Below are positions 44,719 through 51,794 of a stretch of 64,000 bases of DNA, piece by piece. Made by a program: the position numbers and the translations under genes. The notes under the pieces were generated by a model that did not search any database, was not told the origin of the DNA, and was given only the letters and a program-made list of their open reading frames with translations. Origin of the DNA: Candidatus Poribacteria bacterium. GTDB lineage: Bacteria; Poribacteria; WGA-4E; WGA-3G. The stretch lies in contig OZ244048.1 of assembly GCA_965215265.1 (NCBI GenBank), positions 1,664,001-1,728,000 of the forward strand, read 5' to 3'. The stretch's first letter is position 1. Each line of letters begins with the position of its first letter.

Positions 44719-45915
44719 ATGACCCATACGGATAATGGTAGGCTGCCAGCAGAATTGGAAAGCATGCAAGTCTATGGCGAAACCCTCGTTGGGTGGGATG
44801 AGCATACGCCACCCAATGAGACTGTAGATGCAGAGGGTAACATTTTTCCTGCCAACCGAGGGTTTGGCGTAGCAGATGCGACTTCTCCTTCTCGTCGGGT
44901 TTACGACGATCCGGAGGTACACGCACTCAGGGAACATTTGCGGAAACACAACGGAATCAGGGGCTTGGAAATTTGCGAGCCGCACGAAGTCAAACGGGCT
45001 GCGCGGATTTTTCGTCGGGACGGATTTGTTGTGGTGCGCGACTTGCTGAATGCTGAGCAACTTGCGAGGTGGCGCAAAGGCTGCGCACGCGCACTTCGAG
45101 ACATCCTTTCTATACCCGGTCACGGGAAGCGAAAGTACGTCACAGAGACAGGCCGGTTACCGCACAGATATAGTTACGGAACATCCTCAGCCTCAAGGCA
45201 GATGCTGCACGACCCGGTGTGGGCAAGTATGATCGATTTGCCGACAACGACACCAATTGTCACGGAAATTTTCGGCTCCTCTGATTACCGAGTGTGGGGC
45301 TCAGGGGGCGATCTCTGTTTGCCGGGGGCGATCGAGTATCAACACCTGCACCCTGATGGCAGAGATCCACAGCACCTTTCGGAGGCACGGATCGCGCAAG
45401 CACAACACGCCGGGGTTAAACTGCAGCCGGACATTGCTGACAATCTGGATGTACCGACACAAAAATTGATTATGGAAATGACACCGCCGACCGTCACTAT
45501 TAATTTCGTGATGTGTGATTTGACGTGGGAAAATGGGCCAATACGACAGATTCCGGGAACGCATACGATGCAACAGGCACCACCACCACCCGGTGATGAA
45601 CCCGATTGGATGCGGCATTCAACGTTGGTTGGCGCGACTGCCGGTTCCGGTGTGTTTAGGGACAACCGGGCGTGGCACGGCGCAACACCGAACTTGTCCA
45701 AAGAGATTCGGGCACTACCCAACGTTGAGTACGCTGCACCTTGGCGCACGCATCACGGTTTTAGTCGCATCATGCCACATGAAATTTGGAAAACTTTGAC
45801 ACCGCATGCGCAAAAATTGTGTGAATGGATTAAAGCAGAACCAGGGGTTTGGCCTCCGGGAGCAGGGATTATGCATCCACTTGCAAGTAAACGCGCAGAA
45901 GCAGCTAAAACGTAA
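44719..45915 (+). CDS. Phytanoyl-CoA dioxygenase (PhyH) family protein
   Basis: RDGFVVVRD, QHLHPD (HxD), IPGTH, WHGATPN. Confidence 0.85.
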   Translation: MTHTDNGRLPAELESMQVYGETLVGWDEHTPPNETVDAEGNIFPANRGFGVADATSPSRRVYDDPEVHALREHLRKHNGIRGLEICEPHEVKRAARIFRRDGFVVVRDLLNAEQLARWRKGCARALRDILSIPGHGKRKYVTETGRLPHRYSYGTSSASRQMLHDPVWASMIDLPTTTPIVTEIFGSSDYRVWGSGGDLCLPGAIEYQHLHPDGRDPQHLSEARIAQAQHAGVKLQPDIADNLDVPTQKLIMEMTPPTVTINFVMCDLTWENGPIRQIPGTHTMQQAPPPPGDEPDWMRHSTLVGATAGSGVFRDNRAWHGATPNLSKEIRALPNVEYAAPWRTHHGFSRIMPHEIWKTLTPHAQKLCEWIKAEPGVWPPGAGIMHPLASKRAEAAKT

Positions 45916-46398: not shown

Positions 46399-48840
46399 CT
46401 ACTGGTTTTTGGATTTATCCGCCACTACCTCTGCTACTAGCTGTTCCAAAGCCGCTCCCTTGGATTTGTAGGAGATCAACTTGCCATCTCTATCAATAAG
46501 CCACCGTGCTGGAATAGAGCGAATGTCATACTGTTGTGCCAGGGGACTCTGCCGTTCTTGTCCGCTAAAAATCTGCCGCCACGGGATGTCATTCTCCTTG
46601 AGGTAGTTGCGCAGGCACGTTTCATCAGTATCGAGGCTCACCCCGATGATGTCAAACCCTTGTTCTTTATAGGTGTCGTAAATATTTTTGACATTCGGCA
46701 TCTCTGCGATGCAGAAACTGCTCCAGACGGCCCAAAAATCAAGTAACACCACTTTCCCGCGATATTGCTGCAGCGAAATCGGATTCCCATCAAGGGCTGT
46801 CGCAGAAAAATCGGGAGCCGGTTTTCCAACCCATGCCAATGTAGGCCGAACCTTTTTGCGGTATTCCATTGCTAATTCAGCGTTGCCTAACTTTTCATGG
46901 ATCTCGGCAAGCCTCGAGGATATACTGCGTTTTTGCGGGTATTGCTTTTCAAGGTTCTTAAAAAGTTGGAGCACATCCTCATCCCGATTTGCCTTCTTAA
47001 GCATATAACTGAGGGTCAAATGATCTTGAAGGGTTTTAGGGTTCATGACAACTTTGAAACGGTCAATAAGCCCATCTACATCTTTTTCCCGTCCACCTTC
47101 AATATAGAGACGGACAAGCATGGGGTAGATATAGAAAAAACTTTCATTATCTGGTTGTTGCTGAAGTCCCACTTCCAAAGCCAAAATGGCTTTTTCGATA
47201 GTTTCGTACATGTCTTCCGGCGTGTATTCCCATTCGCGGGATGACCGGTAGACCTCATAGGAGAAACTCAAGTTTAGACACTCAAATTCGTGGTTGGCGT
47301 GATGACAGCAACGAGCAAGTGGTATGACATCGCCATATACGGCTCGGTTTTCCAGCGTTCTTTCCCGGTTCTCTGGGTAAAACGAGTAGCCGTAACTCAC
47401 AAGCATCTCCAGGGCTGCATTGCCAGAAAAGATTGGCTTGCCACCCAGTTCATCTGTTGGACACAGCAAGAGGCTTGCATCTGGCAAATATTTGGGATAG
47501 AGTGCTGAGAGCCCCTCAGGAAAATCGCCGTTTTCATTGTGGTAGGCTTGAACGGCTTTGCCGATAGCCATCAAATTTTTGGTGCAAATTCCGATGTTTT
47601 TCTCGTCCTGTGCTTTGCAAATTCCGATGTTTTTCTCGTCCTGTGCTTTGCTGATATCCCCGCTCAGTTTTTGTGCCTTCACTTCCACACTCGTAGATGA
47701 CTTTAGCAATTCTAAATATCGGGGTATCCGCTCACTGCGAGGCAGATAATACGGATGAAATAAACTCCTACTGGATAAATGTTCAATCACTTCCAATTCA
47801 GGAGTTAAGGTCAGAATATCTACAGAATCCGTGTAATATTGTTGAAGTTTCGTGGCCAAGGCCCCAGCTGCTGCCCCTTTGGAACCTGCCCTCAGTTCGG
47901 GCAACTCCCTGAGCAAAACCCAGACGTTTACAAAGTGCATGTTGAGCAAATTGATAATTTTCGGTGAGGAGAGCGGACCCGCTCTCAAACTTTTGCCCGT
48001 CCCTCAGCAAGATTCATCGTCGAGCACACCAAATAAAAGCACCGCATGAATCGGACGATTCGATGCTTTTGCGAGTTCAACCGCGTCATCAATTGGAGTC
48101 CACACAATTTCGGTGAACTTGTAGAATGTGGACGCTAACTTCTCGCGGGCTTCTTCCATAGTAATAGCTGCTCTCCAGCCGGTCGCTTGGAGTCCAGGGT
48201 CTGATACACTGCAGAGCGCCATGTGAGGAACGAATGCCAAATCGTGATTTCTAAAAGCACCGATAGCTACATTACTATTGCGGGTGGGAAGCGATAGCCT
48301 AAATTGACAAATCGTGCCGCTGTTAAGATCGATTACCAGATGTCCAGCGAATTGTGCTGGCATAAAGTAGGCACCAATTGACACGTCCAGCGTGAAATTC
48401 GCATGAATTCGGAAGACAATGTCAGCATATTCAGGCGATAGGGCTCGTAAACACGCTTTCGCATTTGTCTGACTAGCTGGAATGCTACCATAACGTGGCA
48501 TCTTCATTGTTGCGCCTGGGTGAAACTGACGCAGAAATGGAAGCACCCCTGCTGGGTCTAAGTCCCAAACATCCCCTACGTTGGCAGTTGAAGAAGGAAG
48601 AAACACTTGAAAATCCGTTGTATTGTAGTCCTGCAGCGAATGCACAGGTTTGGGATTGAACAGTTCTAACGCTTCTTCCCATGCCATATCCACTGGCTTT
48701 GGCCACTGTGCCTTGGCTCGATTAAACTTTTCTTCTGTTGGCTGGTGCAAGTGATTCGCTGTATTGGCAATCGGTTCCCAATCTGCCCGCACTTGTACAC
48801 GGGTTGTATTGCCAAGCACATGGCTGAAGTCGACAGTCAT
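46399..48840 (-). CDS. Selenoprotein N (SELENON)-like selenoprotein with UGA=Sec at 48004-48006, fused to TPR-like and TlpA/AhpC-TSA thioredoxin domains (~813 aa)
   Basis: ORFs 48004-48924 and 46399-47988 are in frame across a single TGA: LLFGVLDDESC-U-GTGKSLRAG, compared with human [21 protein letters not shown] (recalled). AGGAGG RBS precedes the ATG at 48840; SECIS-like hairpin follows the UGA. Confidence 0.85.
47584..47651 (-). repeat. 33-bp in-frame tandem duplication (KAQDEKNIGIC x2)
   Basis: GCAAATTCCGATGTTTTTCTCGTCCTGTGCTTT occurs twice, exactly. Confidence 0.9.
47969..47986 (-). promoter_or_regulatory. Bacterial SECIS-like hairpin
   Basis: GAGAGCG-GGUC-CGCUCUC; the stem starts 17 nt after the UGA and the apical loop begins with G. 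Confidence 0.7.
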
Positions 48841-49034
48841 CTTATTTTGCCTCCTGTTGTTGGCACGATTTATGGTATATTTTAGAAGGACTGAGACATC
48901 TGATGCTTTGAATAATATCCTCAATAGACTTTATTCGGCATCACTCATAGCAAAGATAACAAGGCTGATGCCGATACTGTACAATATGGACTTACAATTT
49001 ACACTGTGAAAAAATAAAGCGAGCGTTTTCATTT

Positions 49035-50093
49035 TTATCCTCCTATCTCTACAGCCTTTCGTGTCTCTGCGGAAGCGTAAATAGCATCGGTTATTTTCTG
49101 AACAACGAGTGCCTGTTCAAGCGTTGTCATAGGTTCTCGGTTTTCACGAATTGCGGCGGCGAAATCTGACAATGGGGTGTCGTGTCGTGATGTGATGTCC
49201 GCATCCATATCTGAAACAGACGTTGCCTTTACGCCACCTTGGGTGGTGGTTTGGTTGTGGATAATGCTCTCCGGTTTACTATCGCCCATCTTAAGTTTGA
49301 GCGAACCTTTTGTGCCGATAATCTGCCAATCGGCGTGCGACTGCATCGTCATGAATTCCCCGCGTTCCAAACTAATAACCGTTCCACCTTCACACCGGAT
49401 GAGCGCAGTATAGTGCGTTTCTGCATCGGAGCCGGGGGCAATATGTGATTCAAATACAAGCGGCACCGTCCACGTCTGTGCAAAGACGGTTTGCGGTTTA
49501 AGCCGCCAACCGGTAATACCGAGTAGGTAATCTATGTCGTAGCAGCCCCAATTGACGAGAATGCCGCCGCCGTTGAGTGCCTTAGTCAATCGCCAAGCAG
49601 GACGCGGCGTGTCCGGTCTCTCACGTGCACCTACAATGGCGCGGCAGTAGACGCTACGGAGCTCCCCTAATTCACCGCTTGTGATAAGCTGAGTCGCAAG
49701 CTGCGCAGATTTCGCAAACCGATTCCGTGAGGAACAGCACGCCGAGGTGAGGGAGCCACGCGCCGCGATGAGTTGTTTAACTTCAGCTACGTTCATCGCA
49801 ATCGGTTTTTCTATCAGAACGTGCTTGCCCTTGTCAAAAGCGCGCAGCGCAACCTCGGTCCGGTATTGTGTCGGAAATGCCAGGACAACCGCCTCGATCT
49901 CATCGTCGTTGAGCAGGTCAACGTCATTCGTGTACATTTTCGGCGGTTGGAAACGTTCAGCAGCTTTCTCACGATTTGCCGCAATCATGTCCGCAGCAGC
50001 GACAAGCTCAATATGTGATGACGTAGCAGCGATACTGAGATGTCTACTCCCGATAACACCACATCCGATAACGCCTAATTTTACTGGTTTCAT
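49035..50093 (-). CDS. Gfo/Idh/MocA family oxidoreductase
   Basis: GVIGCGVIG, GKHVLIEKP, GGGIL..WGCY.ID. Confidence 0.92.
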   Translation of the reverse strand: MKPVKLGVIGCGVIGSRHLSIAATSSHIELVAAADMIAANREKAAERFQPPKMYTNDVDLLNDDEIEAVVLAFPTQYRTEVALRAFDKGKHVLIEKPIAMNVAEVKQLIAARGSLTSACCSSRNRFAKSAQLATQLITSGELGELRSVYCRAIVGARERPDTPRPAWRLTKALNGGGILVNWGCYDIDYLLGITGWRLKPQTVFAQTWTVPLVFESHIAPGSDAETHYTALIRCEGGTVISLERGEFMTMQSHADWQIIGTKGSLKLKMGDSKPESIIHNQTTTQGGVKATSVSDMDADITSRHDTPLSDFAAAIRENREPMTTLEQALVVQKITDAIYASAETRKAVEIGG

Positions 50094-50489: not shown

Positions 50490-51353
50490 TTACCGCCTTT
50501 TGATTTCGCCCCATGTTGTTGCTAACTTTCCACGGGGGTGGACATCTAGGTATTTACCGTGATAGGTTAAATGGTGCCCGTTTCCGCTAGAATCCATAAG
50601 GCGCTCCTCTTGGCCCCATCCATCAAAATGCCACAGCACAACCGTGTGTTCATCCGGTTCAAAACGGGCATTCGGTACCTGAATGGTGTCTTCCCAAAAA
50701 TGCTGATTTAGATTTTCTCTGGGATAGCGCACGATATTGGAGATACGCACCTCGTCAATCAGCCCTTCAATGAAACTGGTCGAAGGAGGACCCTTCCCAC
50801 CCTCTCTTTGGCCCGGGTCAATCCCAACCAAGCGATGCTGGGCTCCTCCAATACATAAGGGAGAGGGAGTGTTTACAAATCCTCGAAAGCCCCCAAGGTT
50901 TCCCTTAAGAAAATCATTGGCAACTTCCTGCAAATATTGCTCATCAAACATAATGGCAATGTAGTGCCATTGGTTGATGGGCGTGGGACTAGTACGGCTA
51001 ATAGGGAATCCCCATGATTGAATAGCCCCTGGACCTTCGATTCTCACGCGCACTCCGTGTGAGATGAGTGCGAGGGAATAGCTTCCTGCTTTGTAAACGA
51101 GGGCCCAGATCTCTCCTGCTTCCCCGGTTGCCTTGTTAAACTCCTTCACGGGACGTTTCAGATAAAACCACAATTCGACAGTGAACCCATTCTTTCCTAG
51201 TTTGAAATCAAAATCTAAACGGTCAGGGACAAAAGCATAATCGCCTGCTTCGTAAATGGTTAGGTACCCGCCGCCTGCGGGAGATGGTGGAATGGAAAGG
51301 GCGGGGGCAGTGAAGCCGAACGTGAGCACGAGAGCAACAAAGAAAACGCGCAC
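50490..51353 (-). CDS. Secreted LamG/concanavalin-like domain protein
   Basis: Signal peptide; FTVELW, QWHYIA, GLIDEVRIS, LWHFD, DSSGNGHH; TTW tail. Confidence 0.85.
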   Translation of the reverse strand: MRVFFVALVLTFGFTAPALSIPPSPAGGGYLTIYEAGDYAFVPDRLDFDFKLGKNGFTVELWFYLKRPVKEFNKATGEAGEIWALVYKAGSYSLALISHGVRVRIEGPGAIQSWGFPISRTSPTPINQWHYIAIMFDEQYLQEVANDFLKGNLGGFRGFVNTPSPLCIGGAQHRLVGIDPGQREGGKGPPSTSFIEGLIDEVRISNIVRYPRENLNQHFWEDTIQVPNARFEPDEHTVVLWHFDGWGQEERLMDSSGNGHHLTYHGKYLDVHPRGKLATTWGEIKRR

Positions 51354-51794
51354 TGAACTTCTCCTCTTAGAAAATGCTGGGTGCTCACACCTGCATTGTG
51401 AAAACCCAGCGCGCACGGAAGCGGTTAACTATGGCCAGGGCCAAGAGACTGCAGAGCCGGCATGAGTATGTGCTCTGCCCCAGACAGTCTCTTTGTAGTA
51501 ATAGCCTTTACCGGAGAATTCACCTGCCGGTATTCGGTATTCAGAGACGGCTTTCATCTGATCTCCAGATGCACCAGCAGTATTAGCATAGCTGGTGTAA
51601 GTGACACCAGCCACCCACCATTCCGACGGATTGTGGCAGGATAGGTATTCTTTGTCTTTGTACAAGTGCGAAACCCCGGGGAGACACTGCCTTATAGCGT
51701 TAGGAAGGGTGAACACCAGTCCAAAAATTCAGAGGAGAAGCGGGAAGAATTTACGCTTACAGTTTGATACGGAGCGGCACCACCAAATTAAACG

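Follow-up and report, generated by a model that had tools for sequence, protein, structure and literature searches.

Introduction

SELENON is a human disease gene, known from the SELENON-related myopathies. The animal protein has an N-terminal membrane anchor, an EF-hand calcium sensor and the redox motif S-C-U-G, as described in PMC12839072. Its selenocysteine (Sec) codon, a UGA, is served by a 3′-UTR SECIS together with SBP2, and an animal-type transcript in our dataset (L127) carries such an element, which Rfam assigns to SECIS_1. The coding sequence holds a further stem-loop, the SEPN1 SRE, immediately after the Sec UGA, and a resemblance between SREs and bacterial SECIS elements (bSECIS) is noted in two sources (PMC4561486; PMC12936836). 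In bacterial selenoproteins with an in-frame SECIS, such as fdhF and Sec-type selD, a short G+C-rich hairpin whose apical loop contains G and U comes within a few tens of nucleotides after the UGA, and selA, selB, selC and selD are present in the genome. The apical loop of Escherichia coli fdhF is GGUC. In the main text of open-access papers, neither an account of SelN in bacteria nor a SelN-like family in the bacterial selenoprotein literature came to light.

Here we analyzed 64,000 nt of DNA (the window) from Candidatus Poribacteria (GCA_965215265.1, contig OZ244048.1, 1,664,001 to 1,728,000 of the forward strand). An initial annotation had proposed that two ORFs of the window conceal a bacterial relative of SELENON with an in-frame UGA and a downstream hairpin. 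Our sequence comparisons confirm this observation.

Results

The two ORFs belong to one frame, as had been proposed. Positions 48840..46399 of the minus strand form a single coding sequence of 813 codons plus stop, in which the sole internal stop is a TGA at codon 279 (48006..48004). A Shine-Dalgarno-like AGGAGG, read from the sequence (48850..48855, minus strand), is separated by a 9-nt spacer from the ATG at 48840..48838. The residues spanning the UGA are DDESC-U-GTGKSLR; in wider context the protein reads ...LLFGVLDDESC-U-GTGKSLRAGPLSSPK..., and the frame translation together with codon conservation identifies the UGA as the probable Sec codon of an S-C-U-G motif. Translation table 11 cuts the gene into ORFs at 48004..48924 and 46399..47988, and the downstream half is deposited alone in a public protein collection as a 513-aa entry (P0009), which is the splitting by standard gene callers that had been predicted. 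The TGA is not an assembly slip, since contigs from three runs in two studies, some of them possibly the source of this assembly, agree with 0 differences over 47700..48300. Elsewhere in the window TGA works as a normal stop: it ends seven of the 36 ORFs of at least 250 aa, one of the seven being the first half of this gene. The encoded protein is ordered as a SelN-like module, a linker with a tandem duplication, a helical or TPR-like stretch and a TlpA/ResA-like thioredoxin domain.

Homology to animal SELENON covers the N-terminal ~360 residues of the window protein. Alignment with a primate SELENON record by BLASTP gave 28% identity over 346 aa (pairwise E 7e-35), covering window-protein residues 72-357 and beginning on the animal side only at about residue 165. 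All of the co-linear blocks that the initial annotation had listed were recovered in this alignment (window/primate: FQVFLP/FQPFLP, QFHP/MFHP, ACLRALS..VFRIHANF/ACLTAIS..MFRIHAEF, QFAGHLVI/QFTGHIIL, LLNMHFVNVW/LLNESFISTW). The match was significant in both search directions: when primate SELENON was searched against the bacterium's own genome, the window gene ranked first (E 4.9e-21), and the match crossed the TGA. Word-indexed searches, queried with the window protein and P0002, returned bacterial relatives only and no named SELENON; an exhaustive phmmer search was needed. Among 1.84 billion representatives, the Poribacteria homolog P0028 matched records named Selenoprotein N from Cercocebus (E 4.9e-20) and Eptatretus (E 1.3e-22), a Schistocerca “selenoprotein N-like” record, and EF-hand proteins of Vombatus (3.8e-31) and Nematostella (1.4e-22). 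The nearest ESM Atlas cluster of a homolog was likewise labelled “Selenoprotein N” (score 0.93).

The SELENON-homologous core extends over approximately residues 59-361 (47758..48666, minus strand), as delimited by an own-genome match (C1:1711758-1712666) to P0028 residues 36-363 with one TGA inside. In it, a beta-rich domain precedes a thioredoxin-like one, and the UGA interrupts the latter. The UGA occupies the position of the animal Sec codon: 29 animal-type loci carry TGA in the same column, and the database primate SELENON record shows a 2-residue gap precisely at this site in the BLASTP alignment. The module has no model in Pfam or NCBIfam, a PDB sequence search with the N-terminal 400 residues gave chance-level matches only, and a search of PDB sequences found no solved SELENON structure. 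The fold was predicted for a relative, the Cys-form family member P0064 (pLDDT 93.2). In this model S-C-C at 283-285 stands directly before a helix (286-295), and the UGA-equivalent site falls between strand 1 and helix 1 of the thioredoxin-like domain, which places the UGA inside one predicted domain and not between genes. Foldseek matched the C-terminal half of the model to DsbH, AGR3, DsbD-gamma and ERp19; the beta-rich N-terminal domain had no significant PDB match. The window protein carries the SELENON core and lacks the animal N-terminal module of membrane anchor and EF-hand. At E values up to 0.1, Pfam gave no EF-hand family, and inspection revealed no signal peptide or membrane segment; many relatives, and TlpA-type domains, look extracytoplasmic.

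Downstream of the core, the linker contains a perfect in-frame 33-bp tandem duplication (47583..47651; period 33, 2.1 copies, 100% matches) that encodes KAQDEKNIGIC twice, of which the ortholog P0017 has one copy. Signals for TPR_19 in Pfam were weak and below the cut-off (E 0.015 and 0.004), and the model predicted for the downstream ORF from P0009 and two relatives had a pLDDT of 42 and showed no more than a helical-repeat stretch (57-87). The middle region also bears the pattern C-x-K-N-L-x-x-I-G-K-A-x-x-x-Y, which may resemble planctomycete DUF1559-type proteins; Pfam reported no DUF1559-type match there. Residues 671-792 (46465..46830, minus strand) form a TlpA/ResA-like thioredoxin-fold domain that scored above cut-off for AhpC-TSA (79.3 against 26), Redoxin (76.2 against 26.6) and Thioredoxin_8 (61 bits). 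It matched ResA structures in a PDB sequence search (E 1.6e-19) and reached 94 bits for the NCBIfam ResA subfamily, under its cut-off of 170. Alignment to the WCKPC of ResA shows a single-cysteine variant, S-S-F-C, in place of CxxC at residues 707-710 (46711..46722, minus strand). At 18 orthologous loci this site reads NGFC (7), NSFC (6), HSFC (3), SGFC (1) and, in the only case where CxxC is kept, CGFC (1).

Conservation of the UGA was examined across homologs. Of 100 homologous sites from 78 loci, most of them Poribacteria, 98 have TGA, one has TGC and one, in the relative L066, has TGG. TGA is also present in each of the 46 metagenome loci examined, so this is not an isolated nonsense mutation. 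Amino-acid conservation continues across the stop in one frame at the 100 sites. Exactly one TGA is present in 146 of 150 listed matches from 81 genomes of the phylum, as counted by reading the table. Among 152 examined representative relatives, 108 stop exactly at ...SC and are thus truncated at the Sec codon; eight read through, six of them with Cys at the Sec site.

The hairpin GAGAGCG-GGUC-CGCUCUC lies where it had been described, 17 nt after the UGA (47986..47969; 5′ arm 47986..47980, loop GGUC 47979..47976, 3′ arm 47975..47969). Its 7-bp stem overlaps the codons L-R-A-G-P-L-S, and the loop occupies nt 28-31 counted from the U of UGA. The spacing criterion in the bSECISearch literature is 16-37 nt. 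Folding of the single sequence was not beyond chance (z -1.38; 18 of 200 shuffles folded as well, and the 61-nt MFE favoured another pairing), and the significance of the hairpin comes from comparison with other loci, not from the window sequence alone. Across Poribacteria and other bacterial loci the stem is kept in the same place: 98.7% of 224 cells are paired, a value that none of 500 shuffles reached, and four of the seven pairs show compensatory changes on both sides. Considered by class, pairing was 97.9% of 238 cells for the class A stem (nt 21-27 with 32-38) and 100% of 246 cells for the class B stem (nt 21-26 with 31-36), whereas slid controls reached 77% at most; within each class, only one or two pairs show double changes. 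In some paired changes one side alters the protein and the other is synonymous. Part of the conservation is nevertheless protein-driven, because the hairpin overlaps the strongly conserved codons LRAG[PV]LS. At the one Cys-form locus the G’s of the loop are gone (AUUU). A covariance model of the bacterial hairpin (R1) scored the window site at 61.5 bits and had four hits in the own genome, all of them SelN-like sites. Rfam gave no family at the hairpin site at E up to 10, no family reaching the gathering score across the whole window, and no eukaryotic 3′-UTR SECIS in the window.

The Sec machinery of the genome is complete, with selA, selB, selC and selD all above curated cut-offs. selB (336 bits) is directly followed by tRNA-Sec (80 bits, anticodon tca; called tRNA-SeC by ARAGORN), and selA scores 588 bits. 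selD (359 bits) is of the Sec type: it too has an in-frame TGA, after which comes a small hairpin with the loop CGGGU.

The SelN-like family is broad. A library-wide search returned 352 representative relatives, and at least 100 distinct 50%-identity clusters are truncated at the Sec codon. Poribacteria genomes hold up to 17-18 SelN-like matches each, and of the 78 nearest loci 73 are titled as Poribacteria, which fits the sponge symbiont that had been guessed from the sequence. Family contexts are gene-dense and prokaryote-like, and members show bacterial-style fusions to ECF sigma and TlpA.

Discussion

Two origins had been suggested for this gene, an overlooked bacterial branch of the family and host-to-symbiont transfer. 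Our sequence analyses favour the bacterial branch over a recent transfer, because of the 352 representatives and because the window gene groups with Poribacteria alone, apart from the well-supported clade of animals. Recent acquisition of SELENON from a sponge host would suit an organism whose relatives are sponge-associated Poribacteria and a family that had been discussed only for animals (PMC12839072). Joining the animals with the window clade, a group named after the tree was seen, cost 20.8 log-likelihood units and was not rejected by the AU test (p 0.07). Against this, in trees whose animal sequences include no named sponge SELENON, the animals form one clade (support 100, on a long stem of 1.39) with no Poribacteria sequence inside, and in FastTree their closest non-animal rows are LWGxLDDQSC-type metagenome sequences and not Poribacteria. 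The prokaryote-like contexts, the ECF sigma and TlpA fusions, the lack of an EF-hand and the bacterial in-frame hairpin also speak against it, and we consider recent acquisition from the host very unlikely.

The two ORFs most probably constitute one gene for a selenoprotein of ~91 kDa, in which hairpin-dependent Sec insertion would yield a SelN-like thiol-selenol oxidoreductase. The initial annotation’s reading of a Sec-containing SelN recoded by a bacterial SECIS within the coding sequence is supported by the SELENON homology, the conserved TGA with its co-varying hairpin and the Sec machinery. None of the three refuting observations that it had named (absence of Sec machinery, absence of a SELENON match, an isolated nonsense TGA) was made. 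We propose that SelB with Sec-tRNA(Sec) would meet the ribosome at the UGA (48006..48004), held by the hairpin 17 nt downstream acting as a bacterial in-frame SECIS; Sec would be inserted and translation would continue to the full product. S-C-U-G is predicted to lie at the N terminus of helix 1 in the thioredoxin-like domain, the place of the thioredoxin CxxC. There the adjoining Cys and Sec could cycle between selenenylsulfide and thiol/selenol, as in a thiol-selenol oxidoreductase like animal SELENON. For the single-cysteine TlpA/ResA-like domain our guess is that it may serve as an internal redox partner or a substrate-holding domain.

Two other readings of the UGA have to be weighed against Sec insertion. 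It might be read through without Sec, by near-cognate insertion of Trp or Cys or by SelB-independent, hairpin-stimulated readthrough, as the TGG codon of L066 could suggest and as reported for animal SREs, which also stimulate Sec-independent readthrough (PMC4561486). We consider this very unlikely, given that the Cys of six of the eight read-through representatives makes a classic Sec/Cys pair, that the site lies in a redox motif adjoining a Cys, and that the genome keeps selA, selB, selC and selD while using TGA as a stop elsewhere. Also very unlikely is a true stop separating proteins of 278 aa and about 513-529 aa, with the hairpin a by-product of conserved codons: the two ORFs of table 11, the possible starts of the downstream ORF, the separate deposition of P0009 and the non-significant single-sequence fold are outweighed by a site that the P0064 model places between strand 1 and helix 1 of a thioredoxin-like domain, by one-frame conservation at 100 sites with Cys-codon homologs that read through, by double substitutions in stem pairs, some of which change the protein in one arm but are silent in the other, and by a complete Sec system.

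If hairpin-dependent Sec insertion is the correct reading, bacterial selenoproteomics gains a family that gene callers cut at the Sec codon, as well as the phylum Poribacteria. The bacterial branch offers soluble, intron-free homologs, natural Cys forms included, for structural work and enzymology, and the high-confidence two-domain prediction for P0064 provides a model of a SELENON-related module. The natural fusions, to an ECF sigma factor and to a TlpA-like domain, point to possible partners and to a possible role in redox sensing.

Compared with animal SELENON, the window protein shares a homologous core of ~300-350 residues, S-C-U-G followed by G-[KR]-x-L-R, a thioredoxin-like domain bearing the Sec motif (on the bacterial side as predicted for P0064) and an RNA hairpin just 3′ of the UGA. 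It differs in having neither EF-hand nor N-terminal membrane anchor, in a C-terminal extension of 450 residues that includes the TlpA-like domain, and presumably in relying on an in-frame bacterial hairpin with SelB where the animal gene uses its 3′-UTR SECIS and SBP2; unlike animal SELENON, bacterial SelN-like genes also occur as many paralogs per genome. In its recoding features the locus resembles the in-frame-SECIS selenoproteins fdhF and Sec-type selD, with a hairpin shortly 3′ of the UGA whose apical loop contains G and U. The best structural matches to the C-terminal half of the SelN-like module, DsbH/AGR/DsbD-gamma thioredoxin-fold proteins (2ju5, E 6e-5; 7tkv; 3ph9; 1vrs), share only 9-20% identity and have CxxC where this family has S-C-U-G, with vicinal Cys and Sec. 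TlpA/ResA oxidoreductases are matched by residues 671-792 in the AhpC-TSA and Redoxin profiles and in ResA structures, but here the first Cys of CxxC is replaced (by N, H or S in 17 of the 18 orthologous loci), a SelN module precedes the domain in the fusion, and no signal peptide is evident.

The likeness to the SEPN1 SRE deserves separate consideration. Both are coding-sequence stem-loops directly 3′ of a Sec UGA, placed over homologous codons (L-R-x-x-x-L). The SRE is longer, with ~14-16 bp or more starting ~6 nt after the UGA, compared with 6-7 bp starting 17 nt after it in the bacterial hairpin. Their registers differ by 0-1 nt. Among 22 animal-type sequences, 21 have the centre of the apical loop at nt 28-29.5; among 21 bacterial sequences, 16 have it at nt 29.5. 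Because R1 recovered no animal-type SRE site (0 of 22, E up to 10), the likeness is supported by position and not by sequence plus structure. Mariotti et al. reportedly put forward in 2015 the hypothesis that SREs derive from bSECIS. Our observations lead us to raise, tentatively and as a rather doubtful possibility, that SelN belongs among the old, widespread families of bacterial selenoproteins, that the animal gene came from a bacterial Sec gene, and that the SEPN1 SRE is the remnant of a bSECIS that came along with the gene and was demoted to a helper once a 3′-UTR SECIS had taken over. If true, the family would provide the clearest case to date that SREs descend from bSECIS, with both states in one family and over the same codons. 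As the bacterial hairpin and the animal SRE centre on about the same nucleotides within one family, such a descent is directly testable.

Results and discussion

We found that a minus-strand frame of 813 codons, read by translation, runs from an ATG at 48840..48838, preceded 9 nt upstream by AGGAGG, to a TAG at 46399. Its sole internal stop is a TGA at 48006..48004 (minus strand), across which the peptide reads ...VLLFGVLDDESC-U-GTGKSLRAGPLSSPK... The initial annotation had predicted that standard gene callers would split this gene; translation with table 11 does yield two ORFs, and the second half stands as a separate entry (P0009, 513 aa) in a public protein collection. Contigs from three runs in two studies, some of them possibly the source of this assembly, show 0 differences across 47700..48300. 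TGA closes 7 of the 36 window ORFs of at least 250 aa, including this gene's first half, and is therefore an ordinary stop elsewhere. The linker of the gene contains a perfect in-frame 33-bp tandem duplication (KAQDEKNIGIC twice; 47583-47651), which looks recent because P0017, an ortholog, has the unit only once.

Word-indexed protein searches returned unnamed bacterial relatives only, many of which are 576-aa proteins with ECF sigma-factor domains that end exactly at ...DDESC, while a few, such as P0002 (DDESC-C-GTGKTLR) and P0020, read through the site with Cys. An exhaustive phmmer search of 1.84 billion representatives with the Poribacteria homolog P0028 gave 352 matches at E<=1e-3 (246 at <=1e-10 and 45 at <=1e-30), among them Selenoprotein N of Cercocebus atys (E 4.9e-20) and Eptatretus burgeri (E 1.3e-22), EF-hand proteins of Vombatus (E 3.8e-31) and Nematostella (E 1.4e-22), a Sanderia protein and a Schistocerca 'selenoprotein N-like' entry. 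The similarity to SELENON proposed in the initial annotation was borne out: the window protein shares 28% identity with primate SELENON over 346 residues (pairwise E 7e-35; window residues 72-357 against animal residues 165-502), every sequence block listed in the initial annotation is reproduced in this alignment, and a reverse search of the window's genome with primate SELENON has this gene as its top hit (E 4.9e-21), in a match that spans the TGA. In agreement, the nearest Atlas cluster for a homolog is 'Selenoprotein N' (score 0.93).

Pfam and NCBIfam match the C-terminal domain alone (residues 671-792; AhpC-TSA, Redoxin and Thioredoxin_8; ResA/TlpA-like), and the first 400 residues have no counterpart in Pfam, NCBIfam or PDB sequences. 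Animal SELENON carries an N-terminal membrane anchor and an EF-hand, whereas the window protein has neither. TlpA and ResA have a normal CxxC, in place of which the C-terminal domain has SSFC; across the orthologous subfamily, the TlpA-like domain is present in 18/18 loci and its first Cys is replaced in 17/18, which suggests that the fused domain may be a single-thiol partner domain.

The Cys-form relative P0064 was modelled from a 64-sequence alignment (pLDDT 93.2, pTM 0.89). The model comprises a beta-rich domain (~38-218), for which Foldseek returned no significant PDB match, and an alpha/beta domain (234-384), which Foldseek matched to DsbH, a Thioredox_DsbH protein, AGR3/AGR2, DsbD-gamma and ERp19, and in which S-C-C (283-285) immediately precedes a helix (286-295). 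This predicted fold and its matches place the UGA inside a thioredoxin-like domain at the CxxC position. As has been put forward for animal SELENON (passage of PMC12839072), the window protein would use a Cys-Sec selenenylsulfide as its redox centre.

The initial annotation had called the protein Sec-containing, and the corresponding machinery is present in its genome, a single contig of 4.83 Mb: selA (588 bits), selB (336 bits) directly followed by tRNA-Sec (80 bits; ARAGORN anticodon tca), and selD (359 bits) with an in-frame TGA of its own. The tRNA-Sec starts 49 nt after selB (C1:2079562-2081610; loci L001 and L009), and selD (C1:4044300-4045226; L019) itself encodes a selenoprotein (VKCAG-U-ASKLAP), its UGA being followed after ~14 nt by a small hairpin with loop CGGGU.

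When one genome per species was scanned, 225 relatives came up, and the best 80 of these yielded 78 loci (73 titled Poribacteria, 5 'uncultured bacterium'). The TGA occupies 98 of 100 homologous sites in these loci, the others being TGC (L052) and TGG (L066), with same-frame amino-acid conservation on either side. It also occupies the site in 46/46 loci returned by a metagenome scan that targeted the more distant LWGxLDDQSC group. We examined 152 representatives of the family: 108 stop at the Sec codon, with ...SC as their last residues, and 8 read through it (6 Cys, 1 Ala, 1 Gly). SelN-like matches occur in 61 of 81 genomes of the phylum (50/52 in family f1), with up to 17-18 per genome; by our reading of the table, among the matches listed, 146/150 have exactly one TGA and 4/150 have none. 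The window's genome holds three complete copies, one TGA each, and one remnant. P0028 has Gly at residue 273 (ESC-G-VNGK), where relatives have Sec or Cys; in L022, the genomic locus most closely related to it, the codon at that position is TGA. At L066:3781, where the Sec codon is TGG (Trp), the hairpin is intact.

The hairpin GAGAGCG-GGUC-CGCUCUC lies 17 nt after the UGA (minus strand, 47986..47969), as initially annotated. Its local fold is unremarkable alone (z -1.38; 18/200 shuffles fold equally well; the MFE of a 61-nt piece favours another pairing), so the case for it is made by comparing it with other loci. With nt 1 set at the U of the UGA, the hairpin starts at nt 21 in all Poribacteria sites and takes two forms, class A (stem 21-27/32-38, loop GGUC, codons LRAGPLS) and class B (stem 21-26/31-36, loop AGGU or AGUU, codons LRAGVLS). 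In 34 distinct class A sequences, 97.9% of 238 cells are paired and 2 pairs changed on both sides; in 41 distinct class B sequences, 100% of 246 cells are paired and 1 pair changed on both sides. Pooling 16 Poribacteria class A and 16 other bacterial loci gave 98.7% of 224 cells paired, with 4/7 pairs changed on both sides (20 cells). When partners were slid by 1-3 columns, paired cells fell to <=77% in class A/B and <=69% in the pooled alignment, for which 0/500 shuffles attained the observed values. Conserved codons also explain much of this conservation. In some pairs, a protein-altering change on one side is matched by a silent one on the other, as with Ala-to-Val (GCG>GUG) opposite synonymous CCG>CCA, a pattern that speaks for selection at the level of the RNA. 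Pair 21-38 is swapped from G-C to C-G in further Poribacteria-set loci. The sole Cys-codon locus (L052:3775) keeps the stem, with a loop AUUU devoid of G's instead of AGGU/AGUU. A covariance model of the hairpin found four sites in the window's genome, all in SelN-like genes (window site, 61.5 bits), and no Rfam family matched at the hairpin or elsewhere in the window.

SELENON of animals has a known long stem-loop following its UGA, the selenocysteine redefinition element (SRE; passages in PMC8704476, PMC12839072). SREs have been hypothesised to derive from bacterial SECIS elements (Mariotti et al., 2015; PMC4561486), and a passage of a 2026 review (PMC12936836) remarks on the resemblance for SELENON. 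By sequence, 29/46 metagenome loci are animal-type and show this stem-loop; 10/11 transcript-like ones share 37-50% identity with the best-matching named SELENON over ~450-550 aa, and one transcript bears a 3' SECIS_1. The divergent, transcript-like L128 shares 32% identity with named animal SELENON over ~340 aa; this eukaryote-like relative (L128:1154; GSARNMRDGHLKD after TGA) lacks the hairpin at its usual position. In MFE folds, the apical loop of animal-type SREs is centred at nt 28-29.5 in 21/22 sequences, and that of the bacterial hairpin at nt 29.5 in 16/21 (class B, 28.5); RETALES-type animal sequences have the apical stem in the class A register. A hairpin could come to lie at the same site in animals and bacteria through nothing more than shared codons, and the bacterial covariance model matched 0/22 animal-type SRE sites. 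We regard common descent of the two elements as a tentative and rather unlikely reading. A bacterial SelN family would let the derivation of SREs from bacterial SECIS elements be tested at homologous codons.

One paralog class in Poribacteria (P0002, P0004-P0016, P0022-P0031; e.g. L039, L042, L052) carries, fused to the SelN-like module, an N-terminal ECF sigma-70 factor (PF07638, PF04542, PF08281) and a hydrophobic segment. In databases, most of its members are entered as 576-aa proteins ending at the Sec codon. It looks like a putative sigma factor and redox (selenol) sensor domain in one polypeptide. Another subfamily (P0021, P0034, P0036, P0037, P0039) has the beta-rich N-terminal domain only, into which a long coiled coil (~200 aa) is inserted; the thioredoxin-like part and the Sec site are missing. 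Tandem arrays of 3-5 SelN-like Sec genes occur in several Poribacteria genomes (L028/L034 on one contig; G077:C1:912032-921243; G075:C2:5656180-5667755; G042:C17:39945-45910), and the database ORF P0003 spans the post-Sec part of one array copy into the next copy's pre-Sec part. The window gene has an upstream spacer of ~190 nt. Its neighbours, a PhyH-type dioxygenase (44719-45915, plus strand), a GFO/IDH/MocA oxidoreductase (49035-50093, minus) and a Laminin_G_3 protein (50490-51416, minus), offer no functional clue and form no obvious operon with it.

The initial annotation had offered either host-symbiont transfer or an overlooked bacterial branch. We built unrooted trees with FastTree (211 rows) and IQ-TREE (64 rows), in which most bacterial rows lack taxonomy and no named sponge sequence is present. 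An overlooked bacterial family fits both trees, since the window gene falls outside the animal clade. In the FastTree analysis, a 59-row set (support 97) unites the animals with metagenome sequences of the LWGxLDDQSC type, which are unnamed and gene-dense. A recent transfer of SELENON from sponge to symbiont does not fit, because animals form one clade (support 100, long stem of 1.39) and the window gene belongs to a clade made up of Poribacteria alone, although a tree that joins the animals to this clade was not rejected by an AU test (p 0.07).

Conclusion

No bacterial SelN was described in the open-access literature searched, nor in passages of 2026 bacterial-selenoprotein surveys and of a 2026 SELENON review; the passages of that review give orthologs only for vertebrates and some invertebrates and nowhere contain 'bacteri'. 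The likeness was already visible in databases, since one Atlas cluster with many Poribacteria members bears the automatic name 'Putative selenoprotein n 1 (Fragment)'. The protein family and the type of recoding are known; within the literature covered, the domain of life and the architectures are new.
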